Assembly: GCF_056746865.1 (NCBI RefSeq)
Contig: NZ_CM163382.1
DNA length: 64,000 nucleotides
Reading direction: 5' to 3' (one strand)
In this document: positions 14,290-48,120 of the stretch, one piece after another
Numbering within the stretch: the stretch's first letter is position 1
Layout of the letters: each line of letters starts with the position of its first letter
The notes under the pieces: generated by a model
What the model was told of the DNA's origin: nothing
What the model saw: the letters and a program-made list of their open reading frames with translations, nothing else
The model's database searches: none
Program-made: the position numbers and the translations under genes

Positions 14290-14467
14290 AATGCGCTGTG
14301 TGAAAAAGCTCACTGACAGTCTGAGTATTTGTCTGCAAAGGATGGAAGCCCGTCGAGGGTTCCTGAAAACCACTGGTGCGCTGGCGAATAAGCTGACAAG
14401 AATCATCTGGCGTGTTTTGAGCGATAGTATTGATTTTAATATGCAGAAGGCCGTTGTGATGAATTAA
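14290..14467 (+). pseudogene. IS110-family transposase C-terminal fragment
   Basis: ...GALANKLTRIIWRVL... is the characteristic C-terminal motif of IS110-family transposases; no N-terminal part. Confidence 0.4.
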
Positions 14468-14889
14468 AGAAAAACAGTAAGTTATAGAAAATATTTTTAA
14501 CTGAGTTTACATTCACTGATGAGATAACGGCTACCGCCCCTGTAACAGTCTGAAGTTGACCTGGGTAATCAAATACCGGTGTAGTGATTAGGAAATAGGG
14601 CCCGGATAACATCATGGCGCAGGTCATTGAACCTACTAACGACGCCGGATATATGGTCGCAAACCGCATCGAACCAGTACTTGCCTCATCTGGGACGTCC
14701 ATATATGCTCAACAAAAGAGAGCGTTCAGAATTCTAGCCTCACATCATACCTGAAACCGCGTCCCGACCATAGATGATTTTATCGCCGGTTTTTTATGAC
14801 AATTGTTATATTTCCGTAACAATCTTTCCGTAGACTCACGTGCATAAAAATGATTCCCCTTGAAATCGATTTTTTGAAAGGAAACCGCA

Positions 14890-25741: not shown

Positions 25742-26491
25742 TCACTGATCTCCTTCGGTCAACGGAGATTGTATTTTCCGCATTGATTCTCCTTTAAGTT
25801 CGATCTTGATACTGCCATGAACCAGTCGATCTAGGATGGCATCCGCATGTGTGGAGTCTCCGATCATTTTGTACCAGTTTTCCACCGGCAACTGGCTCAC
25901 TACGATGATTGAGCCTCGTTGGTACATCAGATCCACTATTTCCAGCAGGTCGCTACGCTGTTCTGATGAGAGAGGTTCCAGCCCCCAGTCATCCAGAAGC
26001 AGCAGATCGCTATTATTCAGCCTGGTCAAAAGTTTGCTGTATCTTCCATCAGCATGCCCCTGATAGCACTGTTCCATCAGCGCTTTAAGGCGATAATAGT
26101 AGACCTTGTATCCCTGTCGGCAGGCATTATGACCAAGTGCACATGCCAGGAACGTTTTACCGCTGCCGGTGGCCCCGGTCAGTAAAATATTTTGTTTCAG
26201 GGTTAACCAGTTTCCCTGACTGAGTGAACGGATGAGGGCCCTGTCCAGCCCTCTATTGTTACGATAATCCAGCTTTGATAACTCAGCATTAAGTCTGAAC
26301 CGTGCATGTTTGATCAGACGCTCTGCCTTCCTGTTTTCACGGCAGGTTAGTTCTTCTGCTGTCAGTAATGACAGGCGTTCTTCGAAGCCCAGCTCCTGGT
26401 ATGTGCCCGGCTGAGCAAGTTGCTTTTTAAGCGCATCACGGAAGCCGGTGAGTTTAAGTGCGGTCAGTTGTTCGTAAAGATGATTCATCAT
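25742..26491 (-). CDS. istB: IS21-family helper ATPase IstB
   Basis: 249 aa; Walker A GATGSGKTFLA and Walker B LLLLDDWG. Confidence 0.8.
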   Translation of the reverse strand: MMNHLYEQLTALKLTGFRDALKKQLAQPGTYQELGFEERLSLLTAEELTCRENRKAERLIKHARFRLNAELSKLDYRNNRGLDRALIRSLSQGNWLTLKQNILLTGATGSGKTFLACALGHNACRQGYKVYYYRLKALMEQCYQGHADGRYSKLLTRLNNSDLLLLDDWGLEPLSSEQRSDLLEIVDLMYQRGSIIVVSQLPVENWYKMIGDSTHADAILDRLVHGSIKIELKGESMRKIQSPLTEGDQ

Positions 26492-26502
26492 TGGATCCCG
26501 TA

Positions 26503-28044
26503 TCAGTGGTAATACTCACTGCCGCGTACGTTTTCGTGTTCCATCGTGGATAACAGATCTGGTTTTGGATCCTGAACAGGTTGTTTATCCAGACCTTTTT
26601 CCAGGATCGATTTAATACCTGACAGACGCCATACCTTTGTTTTCAGAGCTCTTGCACATGCTGCATTAAGTCTGGCTTTACTGTATTTTTTATGAAGGTT
26701 CAGGAGTCCAAGGCAGAAGCGATAGCTTTGTTCCGGATGTGGACGAGAGTTCAGTATATGAAGCACATAACTATGAGTTTCACTGCCTATGTGCCCCGCC
26801 CATTCCAGAAGACGCTCTGGCGTCCAGGTGGCATGCTGTCGATGAGCTTCAGGCATGTGCTCGTTGCGGGTACTGTAGCCATAAGTACGCTTGCGCGGGT
26901 GCACAGCAACCTCCTGCCCCTGATTGAAGAGTCTTACCAGTTCTCCGGAGATCCATGCTTCCAGTTGCTGGCCTAACAGCGAACATGGAACCGAGTAGTA
27001 ATGTTTGTCGATTTCCACGTGGTAATCGGCATGAACTCTGACTTTCTTCACCAGGGTGTAACTGTAACTGGCTTCAGGAAGAGGCTTCAGTGCGGGTTTA
27101 TCAAGCTGGATGAAGAGTTCTGCACGTGAATAACCCAACTTCTGCATTATTTTGTTATTCAGTCTTTCCAGCAACTCCCGAATGCGCTGATTAAGCGATG
27201 CAAGGCTGTAGAAGATCTCATGCCTGATTCGGGCCATGATCCAGCGTTCAACAACCTGAACGCCAACTTCAGCTTTGGCTTTATCTTTCGGTTTACGTGG
27301 CCGCGCAGGCAAAACTGCGACATTATAATGCTCAAGCATCTGCTGGTAGGTAGGGTTAACGTCAGGATCATACTTACATGCCCTGGATGTGGCGCTTTTC
27401 AGATTGTCCGGAACAACAAGTTCAGGAACGCCACCCAACCACTGGAAGCAGCGAACATGACTCATCACCCAGTCTTCAAGCTGCTGAGACCAGGTGGCCT
27501 CTGCCCATGTGTAACTTGATGCCCCGAGAACAGCTACGATGACCTGAGCAGTTCTTATTTCTCCGGTCTCAGGGTCGGTAACGCCAACGGTAGGTCCACA
27601 GTAATCAACGAAAAGTTTTTCGCCAGCTTTATGTACCTGACGCATTGATGGTGAAGTGGTTTTGAGCCATTCACGGTACATCCGGCAGTAATGGTTATAG
27701 CTGTAAAAACCGCCTGGATTACGCTCACAGTATTCTTCCCAGAGTAGCTGCAGCGTCACGCATTTATTACGCAGTTCCCGGTGTACTGTAGCCCAGTCAG
27801 GCAGAGAGTGCTTCTTCATCTTAACCTGGGTCTGAAGGAACGCATGTTTTAGTTTTGTATCATCCCATCCTGTAGGTAAGGGCCACTGCTTTATGCCAAG
27901 TTGAGCCGCCCGATTAGCATATCTGGATACAACGGAAGGGGAGATTGCAAGACTACGACCAATTTGTCGATGGCTGAGTCCAACACCGTATTTAAGCCTA
28001 AGAATTTCTTTAAGTTTTCTCATAGAAATTGGAACTGTTGGCAT
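26503..28044 (-). CDS. istA: IS21-family transposase IstA
   Basis: 513-aa ORF with N-terminal HTH and IstA-type core. Confidence 0.8.
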   Translation of the reverse strand: MPTVPISMRKLKEILRLKYGVGLSHRQIGRSLAISPSVVSRYANRAAQLGIKQWPLPTGWDDTKLKHAFLQTQVKMKKHSLPDWATVHRELRNKCVTLQLLWEEYCERNPGGFYSYNHYCRMYREWLKTTSPSMRQVHKAGEKLFVDYCGPTVGVTDPETGEIRTAQVIVAVLGASSYTWAEATWSQQLEDWVMSHVRCFQWLGGVPELVVPDNLKSATSRACKYDPDVNPTYQQMLEHYNVAVLPARPRKPKDKAKAEVGVQVVERWIMARIRHEIFYSLASLNQRIRELLERLNNKIMQKLGYSRAELFIQLDKPALKPLPEASYSYTLVKKVRVHADYHVEIDKHYYSVPCSLLGQQLEAWISGELVRLFNQGQEVAVHPRKRTYGYSTRNEHMPEAHRQHATWTPERLLEWAGHIGSETHSYVLHILNSRPHPEQSYRFCLGLLNLHKKYSKARLNAACARALKTKVWRLSGIKSILEKGLDKQPVQDPKPDLLSTMEHENVRGSEYYH

Positions 28045-28233
28045 AGGTATCCTTTACCGGAATGGCAAAAGATACAGATCAACACACCTGTGAAGTTCCA
28101 ATAACATTGATGGAGATCACTGAATAACAAAATGAGTCAAAAGTGATCTCCATCGATGTTATTCAGCGATCTGTTCAAATGTTATCCCCCTGTGTCAGCA
28201 TAGTTGTCGCCTCAATTTTTTAAGGAGATAACA

Positions 28234-28746
28234 ATGCCAGGACAACCAATACCAAGTGAGCTCAAAGAGAAAGGACTGATATGGCTTTTACCACCATACT
28301 GCTGGTCACATCGTCAGATAGCCCGTAAGCTGAAGATCAGTGCCTCAGTTGTATCAAAATGGAGATGTGAGTTAGTGGAGCAAGGACTTTTACCTGAAAA
28401 TGAAAAGATTACCTCCGTTGATGTTGAAGACTGGACACCGGAGCGTCGATTCTCAGTTGTTCTTGAGACGGCTACGCTGTCAGAAATGGAACTTGCTGAT
28501 TATTGCCGACGCACGGGATTGTTTGTTGAACAGGTTAAAGAATGGCGGGCTATCTCAATTCAGGCGCATGAAAAGAAATTGACGGAAAATATCCGAACAG
28601 ACAGGGCATTGCGTGACGCAAAAAATAAGTTACGAGAACTGGAGAAAGAGCTTAAGCGCAAAGATAAAGCTCTGGCGGAAGCAGCTGCCCTGCTTATATT
28701 AAGGGAAAAGTTCAATGCCCTCTGGGACAACAGCGAGGAAGACTGA
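28234..28746 (+). CDS. IS3-family OrfA (copy B)
   Basis: ATG at 28234 preceded by AAGGAG; the track ORF 28204-28746 begins at an upstream TTG. Confidence 0.7.
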   Translation: MPGQPIPSELKEKGLIWLLPPYCWSHRQIARKLKISASVVSKWRCELVEQGLLPENEKITSVDVEDWTPERRFSVVLETATLSEMELADYCRRTGLFVEQVKEWRAISIQAHEKKLTENIRTDRALRDAKNKLRELEKELKRKDKALAEAAALLILREKFNALWDNSEED

Positions 28747-28949
28747 CCCCTCTCCTGGAGCGGCGTAAAATTATTTCTCTTATCCACGAGGCCGTTATCA
28801 ACGGCGCCCGGAAAAGTCAGGCTTGTAGGTGTATCGGTATTTCTGTTCGGACACTTCAGCGCTGGACTAATGGCAAAGTCATCACCACGGACCGAAGATC
28901 CGATACTGTAAACAGATCTCCCCGAAATAAGCTGTCAGAAGCGGAAAGA

Positions 28950-29771
28950 TTGCGGATACTGGAGTTGTGCAACTCTCCAGAGTTTGCATCCTTACCTCCA
29001 AATGTGATCGTACCAACTCTGGCAGACAGGGGTATTTATATTGCTTCTGAATCAAGCTTTTATCGTGTACTGAAATCAGCCAACCAGTTGAAGAAACGAT
29101 CCCGTGAATGTCAGTATAAACGGCCTGATGTACTCAGGGCCGTTGCACCGAATCAAGTCTGGAGTTGGGATATCAGCTATTTGCCGTCCGGGGTCAGAGG
29201 TCAGCATTTTTACCTCTATATGATCGTCGATATTTACAGTCGCAAGATTATTGCTGCAGAGGTATTTGCCAGCGAATCTGGAAAACATGCAGCAGAACTA
29301 CTCCAGCGGGCAATATGGAATGAAAAATGTTCATCCAGCAATCTGGTACTCCATTCTGATAATGGTGCTCCCATGCGCAGTTACACGTTGTTGGCGAAAA
29401 TGTATGCGCTTGGTGTGCTAAGTTCTTATTCCCGGCCAAGAGTCAGCAATGATAATCCTTACTCAGAATCTTTGTTCCGGACTCTCAAATATTGTCCCTG
29501 GTGGCCTGAGAACGGTTTTCGCACTATTAATGATGCCAGAATATGGGTAAACCGTTTTGTAAACTGGTACAACTTTGAACATAAGCACAGCGGGATCAAA
29601 TACGTCACGCCAGCCGAGCGTCATCAAGGTAATGATATGAAAATACTGGCGGCCAGAAAAGCAGTATACCAGCTGGCACGCGAACAGCATCCTGAACGTT
29701 GGGGAAAGCATCTACGTAACTGGGACTACATATCAGAAGTCTACCTGAATCCAGAAAAAGAGGCTGCATAA
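28950..29771 (+). CDS. IS3-family transposase OrfB (copy B)
   Basis: 273 aa, identical to copy A. Confidence 0.75.
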   Translation: MRILELCNSPEFASLPPNVIVPTLADRGIYIASESSFYRVLKSANQLKKRSRECQYKRPDVLRAVAPNQVWSWDISYLPSGVRGQHFYLYMIVDIYSRKIIAAEVFASESGKHAAELLQRAIWNEKCSSSNLVLHSDNGAPMRSYTLLAKMYALGVLSSYSRPRVSNDNPYSESLFRTLKYCPWWPENGFRTINDARIWVNRFVNWYNFEHKHSGIKYVTPAERHQGNDMKILAARKAVYQLAREQHPERWGKHLRNWDYISEVYLNPEKEAA

Positions 29772-29836
29772 CGTAATTTTATTACAAAAGGCGACAACTA
29801 CCTTGAAAAACGCCGTTATTGAGTGATCTCCTTTCA

Positions 29837-30415
29837 TGAAAATACGCATACGCCGCGCAGTACCCGCTCTCTGAAGCGCAGATACCTCCCCTTATCAATG
29901 AGATGTCCCATATGGAGGTAAACCGGTTTACCGTCCAGCATTTCTTTTTCAAATTCGAACAGGTTTGATATGACCTGTCTGATGACATCTTCTGTAACCC
30001 AGTTAAGGAAAACTTTCCCTGCCCGTGGCGTTTTTTTACCGGTTCTTCCTCCCAGACGAACCTGCCAGAACTCCTGCGGCTGACGCTGCCAGGCAAGGGT
30101 GGGACATGCCAGAACACATTCTCCGCATCCGATACAGAGCGACTCTTCCTTTGTGGCTTTGCCGTTCTTTAATGACAGGCACCCCACGGCGTGGTGCGCA
30201 CAGGCTTTCACACAGGCGCCACATCCGATGCAACGTTCTGCCGTAAAACGCATTCTGGCCACACCAATAATGCCAAAGTCTGACATGGAGGCTTTGGCAC
30301 AGTCATTCGGACACCCGGCAATGACGGTTTTCAGGTGATAGGCGCTGGGATAAATCAGCTTTTCCAGCCGCCGGGATAAACCTGTGGTGTCGGTATTGGC
30401 TTTCTGGCAAATCCG
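29837..30415 (-). pseudogene. asrC: Anaerobic sulfite reductase subunit C remnant (asrC), 5' part deleted, 3' end cut by IS3-family insertion
   Basis: ...[21 protein letters not shown]...CPNDCAKASMSDFGIIGVARMRF...CIGCGACVKAC...CIGCGECVLACP; the stop codon is the TGA formed by the IS terminus. Confidence 0.55.
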
Positions 30416-31035
30416 GTTACTATCGCCTGCATGGTGCTGATATCTTCAAATGTCAGTGCTGCCAGATGGTCAGTGACCCGCCCGGTACGGTAACGTTCAT
30501 CCGCCTCGCCTTCATCCAGGGTCAGAATGAGATTGTGGTGCCGGTGCCAGTTCGCCATCTCCTGCCTGTACAGCACACATTCCCGGTTTCTGTAACCAAA
30601 AATTATGTCAAGCTGGTTGATTTCCTGCGGGTTTTCGACGAAATAGCGCATTAACCCTTTGACTGGCGCAACGCCAGTACCGCCGGCAATGACCACCAGA
30701 GATTTGTGGCGGAAGGCATCAACAGGATAGCCGTTACCATAACAGCCACGAAGCCATACCCTGTCGCCTTCACGGAGGGTAAAAAGCGCGCCGGTCACTT
30801 TGCCGACATTGCGGATAAGCAGGTCTGCCCAGCCCTCTCCGCAGTCAGAAACAGAAATGGGCGCCTCCCCGACACATGGCAGGGAGACTTCGACAAACTG
30901 TCCCCAGCGAGCCGGAAAATCGATTTCCACACGGAAATTCCACTCCTGTGGTGTATGACGGGTGATGGAAATAATGCGGTATGCAGCAGGCAAAAGGCTG
31001 TGCTTTTCTTTATCGTGACAGGAACACGTTGACAC
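30355..31035 (-). pseudogene. asrB: Anaerobic sulfite reductase subunit B remnant (asrB), C-terminal Fe-S region lost
   Basis: [32 protein letters not shown]... flavoprotein domain; after ...MQAIV the frame leaves AsrB and the asrC frame begins, consistent with a deletion joining asrB to mid-asrC. Confidence 0.55.
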
Positions 31036-31038
31036 AGG

Positions 31039-31922
31039 TTATGCCTCCCCGGAGAGTGCCTGCCGGACAGCGGCAGTCATTTTATTGATAATACGTGAGA
31101 ATTTAATGTACTGAGGACAACGGTCATCGCAGCGTCCGCAGCCCACGCACATATGCTCAGTACCATTGCGGGCTTTGTAATCATTGACTTTATGAAGTGC
31201 ACGGTAACGTAAACGTTCTCCCGCAGACTGGCGAAAACGGTGTCCGCCGGCCATATCGCTGAAACCCGGTACCATACAGCTGGCCCACTGGCGACGGCGT
31301 TCACCGCGCTGAGGATTTTCGTCATAAGCCACATCAAAAACGCTGTAGCAGGTACAGGTCGGACACCCGGTTGTGCAGCGCCCGCAACCAATACAGCGAC
31401 TGTTGTACTCATCCCAGAGCGGATGATTGATAATAATGTCGCGAACTTTTTGGGGGGACTGACAGATTTTTTCAGGGAGGGTAACCTGCTCCAGGTTTTC
31501 GCTGACGAAGACAGGCTCATATTCCGTGCTCTGTCCCATTCCCTGTAAGGCTTCTTCAAAAAAAGCATCCCTGATAAAAACACTGGCACCGTCATCACTG
31601 AAACGCATTGCCGCGCTGTAATTATCGGTTTTATTGCTCCCCATGGAGACACAGAAGCAGTTTTCAAAACTTTGCGGACACTCAATCAGCACAAAGCGAA
31701 TATGGTCGCGCAGTCGCTGATAACTGTAATCAGAATTATTCCCGTTTGATAAATACATATAATCCAGCCGCGACATGGCATTAATGTCACAGGCGCGGGC
31801 AAATATCAGTACTGGTGTGGTATCCGTCTCCGCAATCTGGATAGTGTCTTTATTAAAATAAAAGAGCGTCTCTGTTATTGGTGAAATAACCGTACTAGGT
31901 GACATGTGGGATTTCTCCTGCC
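31039..31922 (-). pseudogene. asrA: Anaerobic sulfite reductase subunit A (asrA), 5' end cut by IS2
   Basis: Two 4Fe-4S ferredoxin motifs ([26 protein letters not shown]); the N-terminal extension of ORF 31039-31959 is IS2 terminus read-through. Confidence 0.6.
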
Positions 31923-34917: not shown

Positions 34918-35180
34918 GCAAGCACCTTAAAATCACCATCATACACTAAATCAGTAAGTTGGCACCATTACCTGACCAAGCTTCCTCTATTGCGGCACCT
35001 GATTGCATCAATATCGAAAGTGATAAGATCCTCTCACTAGCAGGGCATGACAAGTGTAACTGCTGATTTGTTAGCCTGTTTTAAGTTTTTTAAGATCAAT
35101 TATTTCTCATTTTTTGACTTTATTGCTAGCCGTGAAAATGCAAAGCCTATAGGATACAAAAATTACAATTTGTAGGTTTT

Positions 35181-35687
35181 GTGAGTCATATGAAGGCAAC
35201 CAATATAGACCCTCAACTGCTTGAAAAAGCCACGAGTATCTTTGCTGAGTTGGGCTTACCTATTGAGCAGGCTATTAACGTCTTTTTAGCTAAATCCGTT
35301 CAAGCCAAAGGTTTTCCGTTTTCTGTTGCTCTTGAAAATGAAGTAGAGACACGGGAAGTTGCACAAACGCAACACAATATCAGCAATGCAGAGATAACCG
35401 AAGCTATCCAAGACTTGGTTGAACATGCTCTACCACTGAGTGAAATAGAAAACCTCACGCAGCTAACCTATTGTCGCAACATTTTTGGGTTGTCATTCCC
35501 CGTGCTCAAACTGGCTAAATCATCACGGCCAGAAGACATTCGCAGTGCAGCCAAAGATGCCAAAGAGCGAAACCGCTACTCCACCACTAAAGTGGCCCAG
35601 CGAGATGAAAAAACCTATGTTATTTGCACCCAATGGACCGACAGACATCGTTCTGCATTTTGCCGTTGGCAAGCCATCTTTAGCTAG
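35181..35687 (+). CDS. DinJ/RelB-like ribbon-helix-helix domain protein with uncharacterised C-terminal extension
   Basis: N-terminal about 45 aa (...IDPQLLEKATSIFAELGLPIEQAINVFLAKSVQAKGFPF) follows the DinJ pattern; remaining 120 aa unrecognised. Track start is GTG; an ATG lies at 35190. Confidence 0.5.
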   Translation: MSHMKATNIDPQLLEKATSIFAELGLPIEQAINVFLAKSVQAKGFPFSVALENEVETREVAQTQHNISNAEITEAIQDLVEHALPLSEIENLTQLTYCRNIFGLSFPVLKLAKSSRPEDIRSAAKDAKERNRYSTTKVAQRDEKTYVICTQWTDRHRSAFCRWQAIFS

Positions 35688-35753
35688 AACGCAAAATAAT
35701 AACCAAACAATACACTGATTTTTTAACGATTTAACTTCATTTAGGTAGTATCA

Positions 35754-37733
35754 ATGAACTTACAAGACAAAGAACAAAGCGCCAAACTCTCCAGTGCTAT
35801 TTGGCGTATGGCAGATGATTTATGGGGTGATTTCAAACACACCGATTTTGCGCGGATTATCCTGCCATTTTTGCTACTGCGTCGTATTGAATGCGTGTTA
35901 GAACCCACCCGTGAGGAAGTTCGTAAGTTCTATCTGGCCGAAAAACAATCCGGCATAGACCTTGGTTTAGTGTTGCCAGAAATTGCGGGATTCGCCTTTT
36001 ACAACACCAGTGAATATAGCCTAGAAACCTTAGGCGCGTCAGACACCGGCGACAACCTAGAACACTACATCAGCCAGTTCAGCAAAAACGTTCGTACCAT
36101 CTTTGATGAGTTTAAATTTGGTCAAACCATAGAAGATCTGGAAAAAGCCAAGTTGCTGTATCGCATGGTAAACCATTTTGCCAACCTCGACTTGCATCCT
36201 GATGTAGTGTCTGACCGCGTATTATCAGATGCTTATGAAGAGCTGATTCTAAAGTTCGCCAGTTCGGTTAATGAAAAGGCCGGGGAATTTATGACCCCGC
36301 GTGATGCCGTGCGTCTTGCCACCAAACTGGTGCTGGCGGCGGATGAAGATATCTTTAGTGAAAAGGGTGTGATCCGCACCATCTATGACCCAACCTGTGG
36401 CACGGGCGGTTTCCTTTCCGATGCCATTAGCCAAATTGAAGAAATGGGCAGCAGCGCTAAAGTCGTGCCTTTTGGTCAAGAGCTCGACCCCGCGACCCAT
36501 GCCATGGCGCTGACCAATATGATGATCCGCGGTTTTGATGCCAATAACATCAAGCAAGGCAACACCTTATCAGACGATCAGTTACGTGCCGACAAGTTTC
36601 ACTACGGCCTTGCCAACCCGCCATTTGGCATTAAGTGGGAAAAAGCCAAGAAAGAAGTAGAACGTGAGCACAAACAGCTCAAATACGCCGGACGCTTTGG
36701 GCCAGGCCTGCCGAGTATTTCTGATGGTTCAATGCTGTTTTTACTGCACTTGGTATCAAAAATGGAAACGCCGGAAAATGGTGGTGGCCGAGTGGGTATA
36801 GTCCTTTCTGGCTCGCCACTGTTTAATGGCGATGCAGGCTCAGGCCCATCAGAAATCCGCCGTTGGCTGCTAGAACAAGACTTAGTCGAAGCGATTGTTG
36901 CCCTGCCAACCGATATGTTCTTCAACACCGGCATTGGCACCTACATCTGGATTTTGACTAACCATAAAGAGCCAAGACGCAAGAATCAGGTGCAACTGAT
37001 TAACTTGGCAGATATTTGGACTCCCATGCGTAAATCGCAAGGCGATAAGCGCAAGTACCTGAGTGATGAACAGATTGACGATATTGTCCGTGCGTACGAT
37101 GGCTTTGAAGCCAGTGACAACTGTAAGATCTTCCAGACTACTGATTTTGCCTACCGTAAAGTCACCATTCAGCGTCCACTGCGTGCCAAACTAGATATTA
37201 CCGCTGCGGGCATTGCTGCATTTGTGCAGCAAGATACGTTTAAAAAACTCAAACCAGAGCAACAAGCGGCATGGGTACAATACCTCACCGATAACCTTGG
37301 CCTTCAGCCTTATGAATGGGCACGTTTGGCGGTTAAGAAGAATAACAATAAGGGTGACTTTGGTAAGTGCTCAAAAGCACTGGCTACGGCCTTAACTGCG
37401 CACTTTGTAAAAATTGATCCGCAATTTGAGCCTGCACTGGATGAAAAAGGCCAAGTGATCGCCGACCCTAAACTCAAAGACACCGAAAGCATTCCTTTTG
37501 ACCGCGACGTTGAAGATTACTTCGCACAAGAGGTGCTGCCACATGTACCGGATGCCTTTATTGATCACTCAGTGCGTGATGAAAAAGACGGCGAAGTGGG
37601 CATTGTCGGTTATGAAATTAACTTTAACCGCTATTTCTACCAATACGTGCCACCACGCGAGTTGAGTGTGATTGATCGTGAGCTAAAAGCATGTGAAGCG
37701 CGCATTCAGGCTCTGCTGAATGAGGTGGCGTAA
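35754..37733 (+). CDS. hsdM: Type I restriction-modification methyltransferase subunit HsdM
   Basis: 659 aa; SAM-binding TCGTGGFL-type motif and catalytic NPPFG. Confidence 0.85.
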   Translation: MNLQDKEQSAKLSSAIWRMADDLWGDFKHTDFARIILPFLLLRRIECVLEPTREEVRKFYLAEKQSGIDLGLVLPEIAGFAFYNTSEYSLETLGASDTGDNLEHYISQFSKNVRTIFDEFKFGQTIEDLEKAKLLYRMVNHFANLDLHPDVVSDRVLSDAYEELILKFASSVNEKAGEFMTPRDAVRLATKLVLAADEDIFSEKGVIRTIYDPTCGTGGFLSDAISQIEEMGSSAKVVPFGQELDPATHAMALTNMMIRGFDANNIKQGNTLSDDQLRADKFHYGLANPPFGIKWEKAKKEVEREHKQLKYAGRFGPGLPSISDGSMLFLLHLVSKMETPENGGGRVGIVLSGSPLFNGDAGSGPSEIRRWLLEQDLVEAIVALPTDMFFNTGIGTYIWILTNHKEPRRKNQVQLINLADIWTPMRKSQGDKRKYLSDEQIDDIVRAYDGFEASDNCKIFQTTDFAYRKVTIQRPLRAKLDITAAGIAAFVQQDTFKKLKPEQQAAWVQYLTDNLGLQPYEWARLAVKKNNNKGDFGKCSKALATALTAHFVKIDPQFEPALDEKGQVIADPKLKDTESIPFDRDVEDYFAQEVLPHVPDAFIDHSVRDEKDGEVGIVGYEINFNRYFYQYVPPRELSVIDRELKACEARIQALLNEVA

Positions 37734-39019
37734 TGAATGCTGGCAACATAGTAGATGCTTTCGTATCTGACTCGAAATGGAACTCAGTACCAGCTAAACG
37801 TTTATTTACGAGTAGCAAAGAAATCAATCAAGGAATGAAAGAATCTAATCGTCTTGCACTAACAATGAAAGGTGTCATAAACCGCTCGTTAGACGATTTA
37901 CAAGGACTTCAATCTTCTGATTACTCTGTTTATCAGATTTTTGAAAAAGATGACTTAGTTTTTAAGCTCATAGATCTTGAAAATATAAAGACTAGCCGAG
38001 TGGGGATTGTGCATGAACGAGGAATAATGAGCCCTGCATACATCCGTGTTTCAGCGAGTTCAAATAGCATCTACCCAAGGTTCTATTACTGGTACTTTTT
38101 TGCTCTATACCTAACCAATATTTATAACAAACTGGGTGGAGGAGTTCGTCAGAACCTAACAGCTGGTGATCTTTTAGAAATACCTGTTCCACTGATTGAT
38201 ATTTCATTACAGAAGCAGGTTAGCACATTCCTTGATCGCGAAACCCAGCGCATCGACAGTCTGATCGAGGAAAAGCAGACCTTTATTAAGCTGCTCAAAG
38301 AAAAACGCCAAGCACTGATCAGCCATGTGGTCACAAAGGGGCTCTATCCCAATGTGGAGATGCAGGACTCTGGCATCGAGTGGATTGGGCAAGTGCCGAA
38401 GCATTGGGAAGTCAAAAAGATAAAGCATATTTGCTCCAACTTTATGTATGGAACCTCTCAAGACTGTAACCAGTCTGATGTTGGCTATCCTGTTCTCAGG
38501 ATACCAAACATCAAGAGTACCAATGTTGATTTTGAAGATCTCAAATATGCAAATATCAGTGATGTTGATGCTTTAACTTATCTTTTATCAAGAGGCGACA
38601 TTTTAGTCATCAGAACTAACGGTAACCCTAATCTGGTCGGCCAAAGCGCGCTTTTTGATTCAAATGGGCAGTATTTATTTGCGTCGTACCTAATAAAGTT
38701 AACACCAAAGCAAGGAGTGGATACTAGCTTCTTAGTGGAAGCGATGAACTCACTATCTGTTCGTCAAGCATTAACATTTCAGTCAAGAACATCGGTAGGT
38801 AACTACAACCTGAGCATTCCTTCACTAGCTAATACAAGTATTGCTATCCCACCAATTGATGAGCAAAAGACAATAACGAATTACTTGAGTGCAGCAACGA
38901 TAAACATTGATTTACTGATTCAAGAGACTGATAAATCGATTGATCTTCTAAAAGAACACCGCACATCGCTGATCAACGCGGCTGTCACAGGAAAAATAGA
39001 CGTCAGGGAGGCGGTGTAA
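37733..39019 (+). CDS. hsdS: Type I R-M specificity subunit HsdS
   Basis: 428 aa with two variable AT-rich target-recognition regions separated by a conserved coiled-coil segment; overlaps hsdM stop and hsdR start. Confidence 0.8.
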   Translation: MNAGNIVDAFVSDSKWNSVPAKRLFTSSKEINQGMKESNRLALTMKGVINRSLDDLQGLQSSDYSVYQIFEKDDLVFKLIDLENIKTSRVGIVHERGIMSPAYIRVSASSNSIYPRFYYWYFFALYLTNIYNKLGGGVRQNLTAGDLLEIPVPLIDISLQKQVSTFLDRETQRIDSLIEEKQTFIKLLKEKRQALISHVVTKGLYPNVEMQDSGIEWIGQVPKHWEVKKIKHICSNFMYGTSQDCNQSDVGYPVLRIPNIKSTNVDFEDLKYANISDVDALTYLLSRGDILVIRTNGNPNLVGQSALFDSNGQYLFASYLIKLTPKQGVDTSFLVEAMNSLSVRQALTFQSRTSVGNYNLSIPSLANTSIAIPPIDEQKTITNYLSAATINIDLLIQETDKSIDLLKEHRTSLINAAVTGKIDVREAV

Positions 39020-42000
39020 TGGCTGCACATCATGAAGTGCATTTTGAACAATATATTACCGAGCAGTTGGTGAACAATGGCTGGAAAGAAGGCCATTCCT
39101 GCCACTATGACCAGCAACGCGCCCTTTACCCGCAAGATGTCATGGATTGGGTAAAGGCCACCCAGCCAGATGCCTGGCACAAACTGAATAAACTGCATGG
39201 TGTGAATGCCGAGCAGGTGCTGTTGGAGCGTTTGGAAAAAGCCCTCTCTTCCCACAAAGCTGGCAGTAAAACAGGTGGCACCATTAATGTGCTGCGTAAA
39301 GGCTTTACCATTGCAGGTTGCGGCACGATTGCCATGGGCCAACGCAAACCCGAAGATGCGCGCAATGAAGAGCGTATAGCCCGTTATGAGCACAACATTT
39401 TGCGCGTGGTGCGCCAACTGAAATATTGCCCGACTCGCGAGTGGGAAATTGACTTGGTGTTCTTTATCAACGGTCTACCCGTTGCCACCGCCGAGCTAAA
39501 AACCGATTTTACCCAGTCGCTAGAATCGGCGATTGCGCAGTACAAAGAGGATCGTCTGCCCGTTGACCCAAAAACCAAGCGTAAAGAGCCGCTGTTAACC
39601 TTTAAACGCGGTGCAGTGGTACATTTTGCCATGTCTGATACAGAAATCGCCATGGCGACCAAACTGGCGGGAGAAAATACCTATTTTCTGCCCTTCAATA
39701 AAGGCCATGATGGTTCTACCTCTGATTTGCCCGTACACATCAACTTGCCGGGTGAAGATGGAGAGTATCCGGTCAGCTATTTTTGGCAAGAAATTGCCCA
39801 AAAAGATAATTGGCTACGCATTTTCTACAGCTTTGTGTATGTCGAAACCAAAGAGGTTGCCGATAGCAATGGCAAGGTTGAGCGTAAGGAAACACAGATT
39901 TTTCCGCGTTATCATCAGTTAGCCGCAGTCAACAAGATGATTGATGATGCCCGCCAGAACGGCGCAGGCATGCAGTATCTTTGTGAGCACAGCGCCGGTT
40001 CGGGAAAAACCTCTACCATAGCCTGGACGGCCCATGATTTGATTCGTTTACGCAGCACCGATGGTAAAGCGGTCTTTAAATCAGTGATCATTGTGACCGA
40101 CCGCACCGTGCTGGATTCGCAGTTGCAAGATGCGGTGCAACAGCTGGATCATCAATATGGGGTGATTAAGGTGATTGATCGCGAAAAGAGCAGCGAGTCG
40201 AAATCAAAACAGCTGACTGAAGCGCTATTGACTGGCACGCCGATCATTGTAGTGACGATTCAAACCTTCCCATATGCGTTAGAAGCGATTCTGACCAATC
40301 AATCTTTGGCACAAAGTAACTTTGCGGTGATCATCGATGAAGCACACACCTCGCAAACAGGCTCTACAGCCAAAGGGTTACGCGCAGCGCTTACTCTAAA
40401 CCTTAGCCCTCAAGAGTTGGAGCAAATGAGCATTGAGGACATTCTTACTAAGGTGCAAGAAGCGCGCGCCATGCCCAAGAACGTTTCGCACTTTGCTTTT
40501 ACGGCAACACCCAAGCACAGCACCAAGATGTTGTTTGGCCGCCCGAAAGACCCTAACCAACCAGTGTCAGATGACAATCTTCCTGAATCGTTCCACCTCT
40601 ACACCCAACGTCAGGCCATTGATGAGGGTTTTATTCTTGATGTGCTGGAGAATTACACCCACTACGATACAGCCTACAAAATTGGTGAGAACAATCTGGA
40701 TGAGAAGCGCGTAGACAGCAAACAAGCTCGCCGCGCGTTGGCGCGCTGGATGTCACTGCACCCAACCACGGTCAGCCAAAAAGTCGAATTTATTATTAAG
40801 CACTTCAAGGCCAATATCGCTCACCTACTGGAAGGTGAAGCCAAAGCCATGGTGGTCACATCGGGCAGGCCACAGGCGGTGAAATACAAGCTTGCTTTTG
40901 ATAAATACATTAAAAAGCATGGTATTGAAGGTATCCAAGCCTTGGTTGCCTTCTCGGGCAAAGTCCCCGGCAAAGATTTGGGTGATGAAGACAGCCAAGA
41001 CCCGCTAGAAATTGATTTCGATAAAGAGTACACCGAGTACAACTTAAACCCAGACACGCACGGGGCTGACCTGCGCCATGAGTTTGAGAAAACCGAATAT
41101 CGCGTCATGTTAGTCGCCAACAAGTTCCAAACGGGCTTTAATCAACCAAAACTGGTTGCCATGTATTTGGATAAGAAAATATCCGATGTAGAAGCGGTGC
41201 AAACGCTGTCTCGCCTAAACCGCACCTATCCAGGCAAAGACACAACCTTCGTGATTGATTTTGTTAACGATCCACAAACCATTCTCAATGCGTTCAAAAA
41301 GTACGACAAAGGCGCGCAGCTTAATGAAGTGCAAGATGTGAACGTCATCTATGACATCAAAGATATTTTGGATGAACAGAACATATACAACCATCAAGAT
41401 TTAGAGTTGTTTAAGCAAGCGCGTGGTAAATCGATTCTCGGCCAATCACCTGACAAAAAGTCACACGCGCACAAGAAACTGCTAGCTGCCACACAACGCC
41501 CTACCGATGTGTTCAACGTTAAGCTCAAAGAGCTGGTTGATGCTGCAAACCATTGGGATCAGCAATACAACAAAGCGCACCTTGCGGGTGATGAAAAAGC
41601 GGCGAACTACGCAGAATCTCAGCGCAGTGATTTCACCAAGCAGCGCGAAGCACTAATGCGTTTTAAGTCAGATTTAGCTCGATTTGTGAAGCACTATAGC
41701 TATATGAACCGCCCCGGGTTTCCTGGAGAGTGTTTTATCTGTGAACTCAGGCTGCCAGATCATCGTTTCCGATGGAAGCATAATAAGCTTTTTCTGCTTC
41801 TGCCGGAGGAGTATGGCCCAGCCTTCCCAGCAATCGTCGATTGTTATACCAGTCCACCCACGTTAGTGTGGCCAGTTCCACTTCTGCACGGTTTTTCCAG
41901 CTCTTACGGTGTATTACCTCCGCTTTGTAAAGACCATTGATGCTCTCAGCCATCGCGTTGTCATACGAGTCGCCTGTACTCCCTGTTGATGCCAGTAATC

Positions 42001-43568
42001 CGGCTTCTTTTAGTCGCTCCGTATAGGCCAGTGACACATACTGAGAGCCTTTATCGCTGTGATGGATGGTGCCAGACGGACGACGGGCCCACAACGCCTG
42101 CTCCAGCGCATCCAGCACGAATGTCGTTTCCATAGACGATGAGACCCGCCACCCCACGATGTATCCGGCAAACACATCAATGATAAACGCCACATAGACG
42201 AAGCCCTGCCATGTGCTGACGTAAGTAAAATCAGCCACCCACAGCTGGTCAGGTCGTTCTGCCACGAACTGACGGTTTACGCGGTCGCCTGCGGCAACGG
42301 CTTTCCGGCTGATGGTCGTACGGACCTTTTTACCCCGGAGAACACCGGCAAGTCCCATAACCGCCATGAGACGTGCCACTGTACATCTGGCCACCCTGAT
42401 TCCTTCCCGTAACAACTGACGCCAGACTTTACGCACACCGTACACCTGATGATTTTCATCGTATACGCGCTGTATCTCTCTCTTCAGCCAGTCGTCGTGC
42501 TGCGCACGGGCACTGCGTTTATCCGGATGATGTCGCTGTTGCTGACAATGGTAATACGTTGACGGGGCAATATGCAGTTCGCTGCATACCGGTCCGACCC
42601 CGTACTGCTCACGCAGCTTATCCAGCAGTGGCATCATTTTTTCCAGAGGCGGTCGAACTCCGCCTTCGCAAAATAAGCGGAAGCCTGGCGAAGGATATCG
42701 TTACTGCGGCGCAGTTCACGATTTTCACGTTCCAGCTCTTTCAGACGCTGACGTTCAGCGCTGGTGAGCCCACCATCACCGCCCCCGGTATCCCGCTCAT
42801 GCTGGCGAACCCAGACACGCAGAGTCTCCGGCGTACAGCCAATCTTTGGGGCAATGGAACAAATTGCCGCCCACTGTGAGTCATATTCATCCTGACTTTC
42901 CAGAACCATACGAATCGCCCGCTGACGGACTTCGGGGGAAAAACGAGTATTTTTAGTCATCCTGTTTACCTCTTTCTCAGGGAGTTTAGTCTCCAGGATT
43001 TCCGGGGCGGTTCAATATGGCGCAATTGATTGAGTTTGGTGATCCTGAACTGGAAAACTTTGCCGCGTTTGCTCATTTGCTATCACGTCGATTGAAAGGG
43101 GTAACACCAGAAAACATCGATCTCAGTGCACTGGTACTAGAAAAATTCAAAATCAAATACGACAAAGAGCCGCTTCCAGAAGCGTTTAATCAGGTACTTG
43201 AACCTATCCGCCCCAACTATAACGACCCTGCGGATCGTGAACAGGCATTTCTTGCCGATATCATTCGCCGCCTAAACGAACTGTTTGGCGATGTCGGCGA
43301 CGAACCCGGTCGCCGAAACTTTGCCAACGGTACTATTACGCGTGTCACCCAAAATCCAATTGTGGTTGAGCAGATAGAAAAGCACGACAAGTCGATTGCC
43401 CTCAAAGGCGACTTGCCGCAAGCGGTGAAGCAAGCCGTTGTGCAGGCTCTGCTGAAAGAAGGTGATATAGCCCGAACGCTACTCAAAGACCCACAAGTTA
43501 TGGCAAGTTATGTTGAGTTGATTTTTGACATGATGAAGCAAGGTGCAGAACAGGCGGCGGTGAAATAA
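39019..43568 (+). pseudogene. hsdR: Type I restriction enzyme R subunit HsdR, split by IS629 (insert 41705-43014)
   Basis: Helicase motifs (SAGSGKTS, DEAH-box-like IIDEAH); the frame is continuous across the insertion once IS629 and one ATA duplication are removed. Confidence 0.8.
41705..43014 (-). mobile_element. IS629, copy 1 (1310 bp), 3-bp target duplication ATA
   Basis: Ends TGAACCGCCCCGGGTTTCC... and ...GGTTCA; OrfA 42634-42960 and OrfB 41747-42637 match IS629 from memory. Confidence 0.9.
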
Positions 43569-44122
43569 TGAATACTGCGTTTCGGGTTTTACTTACGTTC
43601 AATGCAACATCACTACTAGTGATTATCTTTGCGGTACAAAAAGGGTACTCACTCGGATATTTCTTTGGTGGTTTCGCTTGCTTCGATTGGATAGCAGCAC
43701 TTCCGAACGCAGTATCATATTTACTCTATTTTCTTATCCCTGTTTTATCGACTGGATTGAGTATTTGGCTGAGTAAGTATTTGGGTAAAGACGATTTTAA
43801 GGCGGGTGAAGTAGCGAGTATTGAGCATGCCAATAACAGCTTCCTACCAAGTTATTTGGGTTACTTTTTCGTGGCGTTGAGCATTGGTAACTGGGAGACA
43901 TTGTGGTTTGTTTATGGCGTTTTGTTTGTTTTTACTCTCTTATCGCAAGCACTCTACTTTAACCCATTGTTTTTACTGTTTGGTTATGAGTTTTATAACA
44001 TTACAACCAAAAACGGAACGGCCATTTTCCTTATTAGCCGAGAGCGCTACAAGAAGCCAGATGACATCGAAATATCATTGGCTTATCGAATCAATAATTA
44101 CACATTTATCGAGCGAGGATAA
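43568..44122 (+). CDS. Hypothetical integral membrane protein (about 4 TM), first gene of candidate defence cassette
   Basis: 184 aa; hydrophobic segments near residues 5-23, 29-66 and 92-150; start overlaps hsdR stop (TAATG); AT-rich. Confidence 0.6.
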   Translation: MNTAFRVLLTFNATSLLVIIFAVQKGYSLGYFFGGFACFDWIAALPNAVSYLLYFLIPVLSTGLSIWLSKYLGKDDFKAGEVASIEHANNSFLPSYLGYFFVALSIGNWETLWFVYGVLFVFTLLSQALYFNPLFLLFGYEFYNITTKNGTAIFLISRERYKKPDDIEISLAYRINNYTFIERG

Positions 44123-44964
44123 TGATGGACCATGTACTGGCACATATAAAAACTAGAGCAAAAAAACGCATTTTCAAATTGGTTTCTGATCAATCTCTTT
44201 TTGATACCGTCACAATCGACTTAAATGCCTGTATTCCATACAATCCAGACCATAACCTTGACGAAGACTCATGGTTTAAAATTGAAGACTTTAGTCAAAA
44301 AGAGTTTTGTATTGAACTGCTAAAAAAAGACTATGATTCAAAAGACTACGATGACTTAACCAAAGATAACTTCGCCAAGATCGCCTACTTATTTGCAATT
44401 CAAGGTAATGATTTTTACTTTCAAAAAATCACTCCAAGCCTATTCGTAAAACGCAAAACGCTTGTTTTTGGTGAAGCCGCAGAAATTGAGAAGAGCCAAA
44501 CACGTTTAGTAATAAACGCCTTACCTGATGCAGTGTACTTCAAAGTGGCCGATACCTTGATATTCAAAAATCTGGCAACGATCTCGAGCATTTTTAAAGG
44601 TATCGATGAGTTGTACAAGGAAGCAACAAAAGAAGAAGTTGAGCAGTTTTTAGATGCACAGTTTATAGAGTTGGGTAATGACTACAACGTAGATAGCGTC
44701 TCAAAACCTAATAGAAAACGTATTGGCCTTGCTATGGCAACACTTGATGCGATGTCTGCTGACGATAAAGCTAACATGCTTGATTATATCGACGGTTACT
44801 GCGGTGAACAGAAGCTGAAATTCGATAAAGAAAATCAGAAGTTTGAAATATCTAATGACGATGAGTTGAAGTTACTGCTTTATGGCATTGAACAACGCTT
44901 CTATACGACCCCGTTTGGCAAAGAAAAAAGGCTCGCTAACTCTGTAACCGCTATGGATAAATAA
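44122..44964 (+). CDS. Hypothetical soluble acidic protein, second gene of candidate defence cassette
   Basis: 280 aa, no recognised catalytic motif; start overlaps upstream stop (TAATG); AT-rich. Confidence 0.6.
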   Translation: MMDHVLAHIKTRAKKRIFKLVSDQSLFDTVTIDLNACIPYNPDHNLDEDSWFKIEDFSQKEFCIELLKKDYDSKDYDDLTKDNFAKIAYLFAIQGNDFYFQKITPSLFVKRKTLVFGEAAEIEKSQTRLVINALPDAVYFKVADTLIFKNLATISSIFKGIDELYKEATKEEVEQFLDAQFIELGNDYNVDSVSKPNRKRIGLAMATLDAMSADDKANMLDYIDGYCGEQKLKFDKENQKFEISNDDELKLLLYGIEQRFYTTPFGKEKRLANSVTAMDK

Positions 44965-44984
44965 TAGCCCATTATCAGTAACAT

Positions 44985-47347
44985 ATGAAGGTTGATTCAA
45001 TGGCCGATAACATCCCACAAGCTCCTCAAGGTGAGTTTGTTCTTTTCACCAGTGCTGATGGTCAAACCCGCGTTGAGTGTCGTTTTGAGTCTGACACCTT
45101 GTGGCTTTCTCAGGCTGCAATGGCAGAGCTTTATCAAGTTAGCTCTCAAGCAATCACCCAACACGTAAAAGCTGTCTATTCTGAAGAAGAGCTTGAGCAA
45201 ATTTCAACTTGTAAGGATTACTTACAAGTTCAACTGGAAGGTGGCAGAGAAGTAAAGCGAAGCATTCGTCACTACAGTCTTCCGGTTATTCTTGCAGTAG
45301 GATACCGAGTTCGCTCAACACGTGGCACCCAGTTCCGCCAATGGGCAACCAGAATGTTGCAAGTGAACCGCCCCGGGTTTCCTGGAGAGTGTTTTATCTG
45401 TGAACTCAGGCTGCCAGATCATCGTTTCCGATGGAAGCATAATAAGCTTTTTCTGCTTCTGCCGGAGGAGTATGGCCCAGCCTTCCCAGCAATCGTCGAT
45501 TGTTATACCAGTCCACCCACGTTAGTGTGGCCAGTTCCACTTCTGCACGGTTTTTCCAGCTCTTACGGTGTATTACCTCCGCTTTGTAAAGACCATTGAT
45601 GCTCTCAGCCATCGCGTTGTCATACGAGTCGCCTGTACTCCCTGTTGATGCCAGTAATCCGGCTTCTTTTAGTCGCTCCGTATAGGCCAGTGACACATAC
45701 TGAGAGCCTTTATCGCTGTGATGGATGGTGCCAGACGGACGACGGGCCCACAACGCCTGCTCCAGCGCATCCAGCACGAATGTCGTTTCCATAGACGATG
45801 AGACCCGCCACCCCACGATGTATCCGGCAAACACATCAATGATAAACGCCACATAGACGAAGCCCTGCCATGTGCTGACGTAAGTAAAATCAGCCACCCA
45901 CAGCTGGTCAGGTCGTTCTGCCACGAACTGACGGTTTACGCGGTCGCCTGCGGCAACGGCTTTCCGGCTGATGGTCGTACGGACCTTTTTACCCCGGAGA
46001 ACACCGGCAAGTCCCATAACCGCCATGAGACGTGCCACTGTACATCTGGCCACCCTGATTCCTTCCCGTAACAACTGACGCCAGACTTTACGCACACCGT
46101 ACACCTGATGATTTTCATCGTATACGCGCTGTATCTCTCTCTTCAGCCAGTCGTCGTGCTGCGCACGGGCACTGCGTTTATCCGGATGATGTCGCTGTTG
46201 CTGACAATGGTAATACGTTGACGGGGCAATATGCAGTTCGCTGCATACCGGTCCGACCCCGTACTGCTCACGCAGCTTATCCAGCAGTGGCATCATTTTT
46301 TCCAGAGGCGGTCGAACTCCGCCTTCGCAAAATAAGCGGAAGCCTGGCGAAGGATATCGTTACTGCGGCGCAGTTCACGATTTTCACGTTCCAGCTCTTT
46401 CAGACGCTGACGTTCAGCGCTGGTGAGCCCACCATCACCGCCCCCGGTATCCCGCTCATGCTGGCGAACCCAGACACGCAGAGTCTCCGGCGTACAGCCA
46501 ATCTTTGGGGCAATGGAACAAATTGCCGCCCACTGTGAGTCATATTCATCCTGACTTTCCAGAACCATACGAATCGCCCGCTGACGGACTTCGGGGGAAA
46601 AACGAGTATTTTTAGTCATCCTGTTTACCTCTTTCTCAGGGAGTTTAGTCTCCAGGATTTCCGGGGCGGTTCAAAGAATACCTAATCAAAGGATTCGTCA
46701 TGGATGACGAGCGCCTGAAAAATCCGCCCATTGGCCATTCTGCTGTGCCAGATTACTTTGATGAAATGCTGGAACGCATTCGTGATATCCGAGCTAGTGA
46801 GCGTCGCGTTTATCTGCGAGTCAAAGAAATCTTTACCATGGCTGCTGATTACGAGCCATCTAACCAAGAGACCAACCGCTTCTTCCAAACCATTCAGAAT
46901 AAGCTGCATTATGCTTGTACGCATATGACGGCTGCTGAGCTTATCGCCAGCCGTGTGGATGCCAGTAAGCCGGATATGGGCTTAACCAGCTATAAAGGCG
47001 ATGAAGTGCGCAAGACAGACGTTACTGTTGCCAAGAACTATTTGCGTGAAGACGAAATCAAAGAGCTTAATCGCATCGTCAATATGTGGCTCGACTTTGC
47101 TGAAGACCAAGCACTGCGTCGCAAGCAGGTATTTTTACAGGACTGGGCCGATAAGCTTGACCAGTTCTTGAGTTTTAACGATAGAGATGTATTAAACGGT
47201 GCAGGAAAAATCTCCAAGAAAGACGCTGATGACAAAGCGAAATTGGAGTTTGACCGCTTTGCCCAGCAGCGCCGTCGTTTAAAAGAAGCCGAAGGCGCAC
47301 GGGCCAATATCGCAGCCCTCAAGGCCATACTAAAAAAAGATAAATAG
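44985..47347 (+). pseudogene. rhuM: RhuM-family protein, split by IS629 (insert 45364-46673)
   Basis: N-terminal part ...YSLPVILAVGYRVRSTRGTQFRQWATRMLQ; frame continues after the IS once one AAG duplication is removed. Confidence 0.65.
45364..46673 (-). mobile_element. IS629, copy 2 (1310 bp), 3-bp target duplication AAG
   Basis: ORF products identical to copy 1; same orientation. Confidence 0.9.
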
Positions 47348-47404: not shown

Positions 47405-48120
47405 CTATAAAGGATTATCCATCTTAAAATCGTCGATATCGCCTGTCATTTTGAATAGATTGGTGTCATTCCAACGGCACAGTTGTCTAACCCGCATTAG
47501 ATTTGAGTTGGCTCTGCGGATTATTGAGAAAGCATCTTCAACAGCAGTAATCACCGATTTTTCCCAATCTTGTGCTCGGGTAAAGGTGCTTTGTGAATAG
47601 CGATAATTGCCCTCACGGGGGAGGTAATGGCTGATCACCTGGTATTTGTCAGAATTCTTTTTAGGTTTAAACTCGTTGTAAACCCAGAAAATTTCGAGTT
47701 TTTTGTTTCTTTGCCTTACACGACAACCAAAATGACCTGGGTAGCCTTCAGAGTTTTTACCTCTATGTGCAACGTTGTTCAGCCAGAACAAGTCTGCAAT
47801 TTTTTGTGCTATGTAGAAGTAGCGGAGCTGTTCTATTTCGGTTGATTTATGGGTGTAGTGTAGATATTGCTCTGATATGGTTAAGGAAAAAGCATTGCGT
47901 CGTCTTGATTAACATTTGTGCTATTGACAATAAAGGTTTCCCAAATATTAATTTGTGTTTCTAGTCCTTTAAATGATTTTGAGAAGGCTTCTATGTACTC
48001 AGATTGCGGTTGATTTCCCCCATTTAGTGCTGCACCAAATGTAGCTATCTGTTGTTCTAAAAATGAATGATTTTTGGTCATTACATAATCCTCTGTGTGG
48101 TTGATACTGCGTATTTTCAT
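47405..48120 (-). pseudogene. Hypothetical protein, apparently frameshifted
   Basis: Two consecutive minus-strand ORFs (47881-48120 and 47405-47791) with a short gap; no family recognised. Confidence 0.3.

Follow-up and report, generated by a model that had tools for sequence, protein, structure and literature searches.

A stretch of 64,000 nucleotides from NCBI RefSeq assembly GCF_056746865.1 (contig NZ_CM163382.1), referred to here as the window, carries a type I restriction-modification (R-M) locus in which two genes are each split by a copy of the same insertion sequence (IS), an element of the IS629/IS1203 type. In order, the locus comprises a relB/dinJ-like gene, hsdM, hsdS, hsdR, two genes resembling kwaA and kwaB of the Kiwa defence system, and rhuM; the region is very probably a horizontally spread defence module. 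IS copy 1 lies in hsdR and IS copy 2 in rhuM. The coordinates of all these features are collected in Table 1.

Two IS629-type insertions and their uninterrupted alleles

The two IS copies are identical at 1310 of 1310 bases, are arranged as direct repeats and carry their transposase genes on the minus strand. Their terminal inverted repeats are imperfect, with agreement at 22 of 25 nt (TGAACCGCCCCGGGTTTCCTGGAGA against the reverse complement TGAACCGCCCCGGAAATCCTGGAGA), and every IS629-type copy ends in TGAACCGCCCCGG... The two reading frames, orfA (108 aa) and orfB (296 aa), overlap at 42634-42637 and match the NCBIfam model transpos_IS3 with E 3.2e-11 and 2.9e-94, respectively. The identity of the element was gauged indirectly, through an element of strain SMS-3-5 labelled 'IS3-like element IS1203 family' by RefSeq, to which copies 1 and 2 are 99.85% identical. 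IS1203 is an isoform of IS629, and target duplications of IS629 measure 3-4 bp (PMC3271280). In their length, inverted repeats, two overlapping open reading frames (ORFs) and 3-bp duplications, the elements have the structure of IS629/IS1203, of the IS3 family.

Copy 1 is flanked by the target duplication ATA (41702-41704 and 43015-43017), and copy 2 by AAG (45361-45363 and 46674-46676). Because the two duplications differ, the copies derive from two separate transposition events; a single IS629/IS1203-type element would have inserted twice by a copy-out-paste-in route, leaving its own 3-bp duplication each time. When copy 1 and one ATA are removed, hsdR becomes a single open frame of 3237 nt encoding 1078 aa. 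Removal of copy 2 and one AAG likewise gives a rhuM open frame of 1050 nt, which encodes 349 aa when read from position 44985 and 344 aa when read from 45000, the start used by RefSeq. A first-pass annotation of this DNA had placed the hsdR split at 41705 with an ATA duplication and the rhuM split at 45364 with an AAG duplication, and had described two identical IS629 copies in direct orientation whose excision, together with one duplication copy, restores both frames exactly. The IS boundaries, the flanking duplications and the base-by-base comparison bear out each of these statements, and all of its coordinates are correct.

To place the insertions in time, we compared the locus with 5,426 complete E. 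coli genomes. The 2.35 kb between IS copies 1 and 2 is present in 76 of them, with at least 99% identity and on the chromosome in every case, which corresponds to a module frequency of approximately 1.4%. Artificial 600-bp restored junctions, one for hsdR and one for rhuM, were used as search queries. Both retrieved full-length, one-piece, 100% identical matches in all 76 genomes, and these matches fall inside single genes annotated as 'type I restriction endonuclease subunit R' and 'virulence RhuM family protein'. No half-matches of the kind expected of an IS-split allele were found among the 5,426 genomes. The comparison with relatives lacking the IS629 copies, which the first-pass annotation had proposed, thus returned hsdR and rhuM as single genes in 76 of 76 cases.

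The surrounding sequence agrees with this picture. Positions 35000-41704 are 100% identical to several strains with an intact hsdR (EF5-18-41 and PK8276, for example), and across the module only IS copies 1 and 2 interrupt the collinearity of the window with EF5-18-41 and SMS-3-5. Exact-product look-ups across 153 billion gene positions returned nothing for the fusion ORFs (a 973-aa HsdR fusion and RhuM fragments of 204 aa and 199 aa), and a 39-mer covering the hsdR-IS junction had no match among GTDB species representatives. Given that the junctions are uninterrupted in 76 of 76 genomes, both insertions are private to this genome and recent. Their earlier description as simple and probably recent is well matched by the exact restoration of both frames, the identical IS copies, the 100% identical flanks and the count of interrupted alleles (0 of 76).

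Two other accounts of the paired copies were weighed at this point. The first is an assembly or sequencing artefact, in which collapse or expansion of repeats misplaced the IS copies: three near-identical IS copies within 10 kb are difficult for short-read assembly, as is an exact 1704-nt inverted repeat elsewhere in the window. However, the IS ends are perfect at both sites, and each site is flanked by a true direct 3-bp duplication of a target that is single-copy in the uninterrupted allele. Misassembly does not produce such duplications, which makes an artefact extremely unlikely. The second is a nascent composite transposon, that is, a unit made of the IS copies and the 2.35 kb between them (the hsdR 3' end, kwaAB and the rhuM 5' end) that would be mobile as a whole. 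An intact two-gene defence system is indeed flanked here by IS copies that are identical, full length and intact in orfA and orfB, but each IS has its own duplication (ATA or AAG) and the outer flanks share none; moreover, the inner segment is collinear with, and 100% identical to, the uninterrupted module, and no second copy of the unit was found in the 5,426 genomes. We therefore rejected a composite-transposon origin, and regard a unit of this kind in the making as very improbable. The separate duplications and the collinear inner segment indicate that the structure arose in place by two insertions.

The insertions resemble those of IS629 in enterohaemorrhagic E. coli (O157:H7 genomes, and lacZ::IS in O121:H19) in the length of the element (approximately 1.3 kb), its IS3-family membership, the 3-4 bp duplication, the splitting of genes by simple insertion and the possibility of exact removal (PMC3271280; PMC9397093). 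They differ in their targets, hsdR and rhuM, for which the complete genomes searched hold no interrupted allele.

Table 1. Features of the interrupted module and of the neighbouring IS629-type copy (positions in the window)
Feature	Position	Strand	Details
Module-heading gene with N-terminal RelB/DinJ-like domain	35181-35687	+	165-168 aa; RefSeq start 35190
hsdM, type I methyltransferase subunit	35754-37733	+	659 aa, intact; PADLOC MTase_I E 1.9e-243, full length
hsdS, specificity subunit	37733-39019	+	428 aa, intact; PADLOC Specificity_I E 4e-97, full length
hsdR 5' part, nuclease and SF2 motor domains	39019-41704	+	codons 1-895
IS629/IS1203-type insertion sequence, copy 1	41705-43014	-	1310 bp; repeat finding and direct comparison
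orfA and orfB of IS copy 1	42960-42634 and 42637-41747	-	NCBIfam transpos_IS3
hsdR 3' part, C-terminal helical region	43018-43568	+	codons 897-1078; 100% identical to SMS-3-5 hsdR
kwaA-like gene, membrane protein	43568-44122	+	184 aa, intact; PADLOC KwaA E 9.3e-16
kwaB-like gene	44122-44964	+	280 aa, intact; PADLOC KwaB E 7.1e-14, full length
rhuM 5' part	44985-45363	+	RefSeq start 45000
IS629/IS1203-type insertion sequence, copy 2	45364-46673	-	1310 bp; repeat finding and direct comparison
rhuM 3' part	46677-47347	+	restored-junction comparison
Third IS629-type copy, older, defective	50679-51987	-	1309 bp; one substitution and 1-bp deletion

Probable consequences for restriction, methylation and RhuM

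The PADLOC and NCBIfam models identify hsdM and hsdS, and by their sequences hsdM, hsdS and hsdR together encode the three subunits of a type I R-M system. Such a system combines an N6-adenine methyltransferase (HsdM), a subunit with two target-recognition domains (HsdS) and a subunit joining a PD-(D/E)xK nuclease to an SF2 motor (HsdR); its restriction activity is ATP-dependent and needs HsdR bound to M2S. The first-pass annotation considered hsdM and hsdS intact, and at the sequence level they are: both are full length and base-for-base identical (100% at the DNA level) to strains with an intact hsdR. The restored HsdR contains the Pfam domains HSDR_N (residues 60-220), SWI2/SNF2 (299-564) and T1R_D3-like (608-748). 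IS copy 1 is located between codons 895 and 896, the native codon M896 being the ATG at 43017-43019, which straddles the duplication. From the 5' part, the open frame continues into the IS to 41940, giving the 973-aa fusion ORF (895 aa plus 78 IS-encoded residues), and HsdR loses its last 183 residues.

In EcoR124I, docking to the methyltransferase has been proposed for the C-terminal helical region of HsdR, on which all HsdR activities depend (PMC5248579). If the region has the same role here, an HsdR lacking it is likely unable to work with M2S, so that methylation would be kept and restriction lost (an R- M+ state). The HsdR of this module is only remotely related to that of EcoR124I (E 2e-4), and the role of the domain is thus carried over by analogy. 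Apart from this distance to EcoR124I, the predicted condition is that of the r-minus m-plus mutants of EcoKI and EcoR124I, with HsdR function lost and HsdM and HsdS intact. A type I system without HsdR function but with intact HsdM and HsdS is expected to retain an active M2S methyltransferase.

Two features of the interrupted gene weigh against a complete loss of restriction. The truncated HsdR retains complete nuclease and motor domains, and the 3' fragment starts exactly at the native ATG (43017), which makes a split, reassembling HsdR conceivable. Restriction would then survive through assembly of the N-terminal fragment (895 + 78 aa) with M2S, either alone or together with the 183-aa C-terminal fragment. 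The ATG is in frame and follows a G-rich stretch at the end of the IS, as such a reading would have it; on the other side, the 3' fragment has no evident promoter by a crude consensus scan. We consider surviving restriction highly unlikely, and the R- M+ state remains the preferred prediction.

The restored RhuM contains the full Pfam Virulence_RhuM domain (PF13310; E 1.4e-113, residues 69-322), and IS copy 2 splits this domain at codon 122 of the 344-aa form, so judging from the sequence a loss of RhuM function is nearly certain. The restored protein also matches PADLOC PDC-S05 (E 8.4e-167), a model that denotes a defence candidate only; the PDC families go back to genes that sit within the loci of BREX, DISARM and type I R-M systems (bioRxiv 10.1101/2024.01.29.577857). 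In the proposed mechanism, copy 1 between hsdR codons 895 and 896 and copy 2 inside the RhuM domain would disable restriction and RhuM, respectively.

A Kiwa-like pair behind the interrupted hsdR

Between the two IS copies lies an intact pair of genes whose products are matched by the PADLOC KwaA and KwaB models. Kiwa consists of a four-helix membrane protein, KwaA, and a DUF4868 protein, KwaB; it reportedly detects changes that phages induce in the membrane, and binds DNA as it enters the cell (PMC11785009). Against the NCBIfam KwaA model, the KwaA-like protein scores E 1.1e-5 and 25 bits, versus a cut-off of 100, and so falls short of that model. Its Kyte-Doolittle profile contains three clear hydrophobic stretches (residues ~3-25, 41-69 and 111-138) and a weaker one under the threshold (~92-106). 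The protein is 85% identical to one from Vibrio cholerae for which a Pfam KwaA match (PF28043) is recorded, and recent RefSeq records label the product 'KwaA family protein'.

A Pfam scan of both proteins gave nothing on either, and PF16162 (KwaB/DUF4868) found no match on the KwaB-like protein even at E up to 10. The family to which it belongs comprises 534 clusters at 50% identity; of 66 members sampled, only 2 match Pfam KwaB at E <=0.001. Sequence searches of the PDB with the KwaA-like and KwaB-like proteins, and with a profile of the 66 sequences, retrieved nothing relevant. An AlphaFold (AF2) model of the KwaB-like protein, built on the family alignment, reached a pLDDT of 92.9. When this model was compared with the PDB using Foldseek, the only significant matches were the KwaB chains 9mtn, 9mrx and 9nyu (E 3.6e-7 to 2.5e-6, probability 1.00; TM 0.55-0.59 at ~11% identity), the next PDB match having E 0.15. 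Since the Pfam and PDB sequence searches were empty, the link to Kiwa rests on the PADLOC models and the fold comparison.

These two lines of evidence place the cassette in the wider Kiwa family, as a divergent system with a predicted activity against phage or conjugation. It shares with the Kiwa of E. coli O55:H7 RM12579 and ECOR strains (PDB 9mrx, 9mtn, 9nyu) the order kwaA then kwaB, and the succession of a small multi-pass membrane protein and a ~280-310 aa protein with the KwaB fold. It differs in the low identity to solved KwaB, in the lack of a direct Pfam KwaB/DUF4868 match, in an NCBIfam KwaA score far under the cut-off and in being fused into a type I R-M operon via overlapping stop and start codons. 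Falling outside both the Pfam DUF4868 definition and the NCBIfam KwaA cut-off, the pair represents a divergent clade.

A related pair in V. cholerae is located in a different island, near a cytosine methylase, a DUF2357/PDDEXK_7 protein and DarT/DarG. The two pairs share 83-85% protein identity and 79% DNA identity exactly over the two ORFs, the homology extending from 8 nt before the kwaA ATG to the end of kwaB. As the homology is limited to the two ORFs and these 8 nt, the pair looks like a portable, promoter-less two-ORF unit.

Several further observations concern Kiwa-like genes in other genomes. Members of the KwaB-like family are 82-95% identical across Escherichia, Plesiomonas, Aeromonas, Shewanella, Vibrio, Alteromonas and Proteus, and the name 'ATP F0F1 synthase synthase', which they widely bear in public databases, is evidently a propagated misnomer. 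SMS-3-5 has a second, canonical Kiwa locus (28240-31173) approximately 7 kb from the module, in which kwaA is annotated and kwaB is split by ISVsa5, another IS-damaged Kiwa in the same island. The V. cholerae island also encodes, at 14449-16815 and near the Kiwa-like pair, a 788-aa AEP-TOTE primase-polymerase/helicase protein, whose domain make-up may resemble that of the IS-excision enhancer (IEE) family.

Coding sequences of the module are tightly joined. The hsdM/hsdS, hsdS/hsdR, hsdR/kwaA and kwaA/kwaB junctions are all TAATG overlaps, and rhuM starts 20-35 nt after kwaB. The four overlaps indicate that hsdM, hsdS, hsdR, kwaA and kwaB form one transcription unit with coupled translation. 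In the present allele, kwaAB are preceded by 1.3 kb of IS in antisense orientation and by a premature stop at 41940. Because they have no promoter of their own, are translationally linked to hsdR and now follow an antisense IS and a stop, their expression is probably strongly reduced by transcriptional polarity; intact as they are, the two genes would be silenced by their position behind IS copy 1. The first-pass annotation had already proposed that this IS separates the two-gene cassette from the hsd promoter, a proposal strengthened by the TAATG overlaps and by a pair that has no upstream DNA of its own. The assignment of the pair to a Kiwa-like system refines this account, so that three defence functions are affected, and not two.

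Where transcription of kwaAB could otherwise come from was considered in two ways. On the plus strand from IS copy 1 to kwaA, the crude consensus scan picked out no sigma-70-like site. This is a weak test: the promoter and terminator matching yielded fewer promoter-like sites than shuffled controls and is uninformative, not negative proof. Its outcome is compatible with a promoter for kwaAB within the 3' end of hsdR or at the end of the IS, a further point on the side of residual function. The IS itself was the other candidate source, since the first-pass annotation had suggested that an outward promoter of IS629 might serve the cassette. The transposase lies on the minus strand in both copies, so kwaA and the rhuM 3' fragment face the left inverted repeat (IRL) end. 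In IS911 and other IS3-family elements, an outward -35 is found in the right inverted repeat (IRR), and the IRL has an inward -10 (PMC9330008). By analogy with these elements, an outward promoter of copy 1 would point away from kwaAB, and that of copy 2 would run antisense into the rhuM 5' part and kwaB; the suggestion is accordingly not favoured.

Overall, the locus very probably represents recent IS629 decay of a horizontally spread type I R-M/Kiwa-like/RhuM module, from which we infer the R- M+ state, the loss of RhuM and the reduced expression of kwaAB. A different reading of the same changes is a selected, possibly reversible shut-down: restriction, Kiwa (through polarity) and RhuM would be off and self-methylation kept, easing the uptake of plasmids or prophages, and precise excision, such as IEE-promoted excision of IS629, could turn the genes back on. 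It would account for two new insertions of the same element at a distance of 3.66 kb, each hitting a defence gene of a module that is uninterrupted in 76 other genomes, and IEE does promote precise excision of IS629, having restored lacZ in O121:H19 (PMC9397093, PMC9943667, PMC9330008). However, the clustering is explained equally well by local hopping or by an IS-rich, dispensable island, and the window contains no ORF of a size suitable for iee. A selected shut-down thus seems unlikely. We give slightly less weight still to a variant in which the paired insertions, brought together by local hopping, act as a selected, potentially reversible switch and also bracket the Kiwa operon in the manner of a composite transposon.

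Under the preferred reading of recent IS629 decay, the locus would be a well-documented natural example of a single mobile element by which three layers of defence against phages and plasmids are lost or probably silenced, with methylation left in place. Strains with such damage are expected to be better recipients of foreign DNA, and their orphan type I methylation pattern could mislead methylome surveys. Each part of this picture is established: the disruption of genes by IS629 and of restriction genes by IS elements, type I systems turned r- m+, and type I loci with defence genes embedded in them. The novelty is a further instance, IS629 in hsdR and rhuM of a restriction-Kiwa-RhuM module; this is clean but ordinary mobile-element damage that leaves current understanding unchanged. 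The type I R-M operon also takes in a divergent Kiwa pair, apparently promoter-less, whose link to hsdR consists of overlapping codons. As with PrrC and the 'guilt-by-embedding' PADLOC PDC genes, the Kiwa-like pair and RhuM are found inside or at the end of a type I operon; in contrast to those cases, the extra genes here follow hsdR and do not lie between the hsd genes.

Deletion routes and surroundings of the module

A third IS629-type copy lies downstream of rhuM in the same orientation as copies 1 and 2. It has no matching duplication (GTT on the left, AAT on the right) and has a counterpart at the same position in SMS-3-5, annotated there as a frameshifted IS1203-family element. Being common to SMS-3-5, it is older than copies 1 and 2, and it is unlikely to have been their source. 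With three IS copies in one orientation, the segment would be prone to deletion through homologous recombination, the possible losses being 3.66 kb (copies 1-2), 5.3 kb (copies 2-3) and 9.0 kb (copies 1-3). The first-pass annotation had foreseen that recombination between copies 1 and 2 would delete the hsdR 3' end, the cassette and the rhuM 5' end; this follows directly from the identical direct repeats, and the third copy extends it by opening further routes. No IS-mediated deletion products were found among the 76 module-bearing E. coli genomes, all of which keep the whole module.

The module is found in more than one genomic setting. An IS1 is located just upstream of it in the window, and in both SMS-3-5 and EF5-18-41 the module directly follows an IS1. 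It adjoins a tRNA-Leu gene and an integrase in SMS-3-5, and a tRNA-Phe gene and an integrase in EF5-18-41; these different tRNA sites indicate that the module has moved between islands. Directly after rhuM comes a mobI(A/C)-like gene for conjugative transfer (~47405-47878, minus strand), which hints at an origin in an integrative conjugative element. A plasmid or SXT/IncA/C origin of the module, prompted by mobI(A/C) and by the homologues in Vibrio, Shewanella and Proteus, was dropped, as the plasmids in PLSDB show only partial rhuM matches.

Many further IS elements occur within the window. Among them, an IS3-family element forms the exact inverted repeat of 1704 nt, with 100% complementarity, at 23999-25702 and 28145-29848. 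The repeats enclose 2442 nt with IS21-type istA and istB ORFs (26503-28044 and 25742-26491, minus strand), and possible readings of the arrangement are a composite structure, an inversion-duplication and a problem of assembly.

The gene that heads the module matches NCBIfam TIGR02384 over residues 7-78 (E 1.7e-10, below the curated cut-off), and in SMS-3-5 and EF5-18-41 it carries the RefSeq name of a RelB/DinJ family antitoxin. No toxin gene was found near it, and its product may be a regulator rather than an antitoxin. The C-terminal half of the protein is uncharacterised, and the gene heads the hsd operon in all related genomes.

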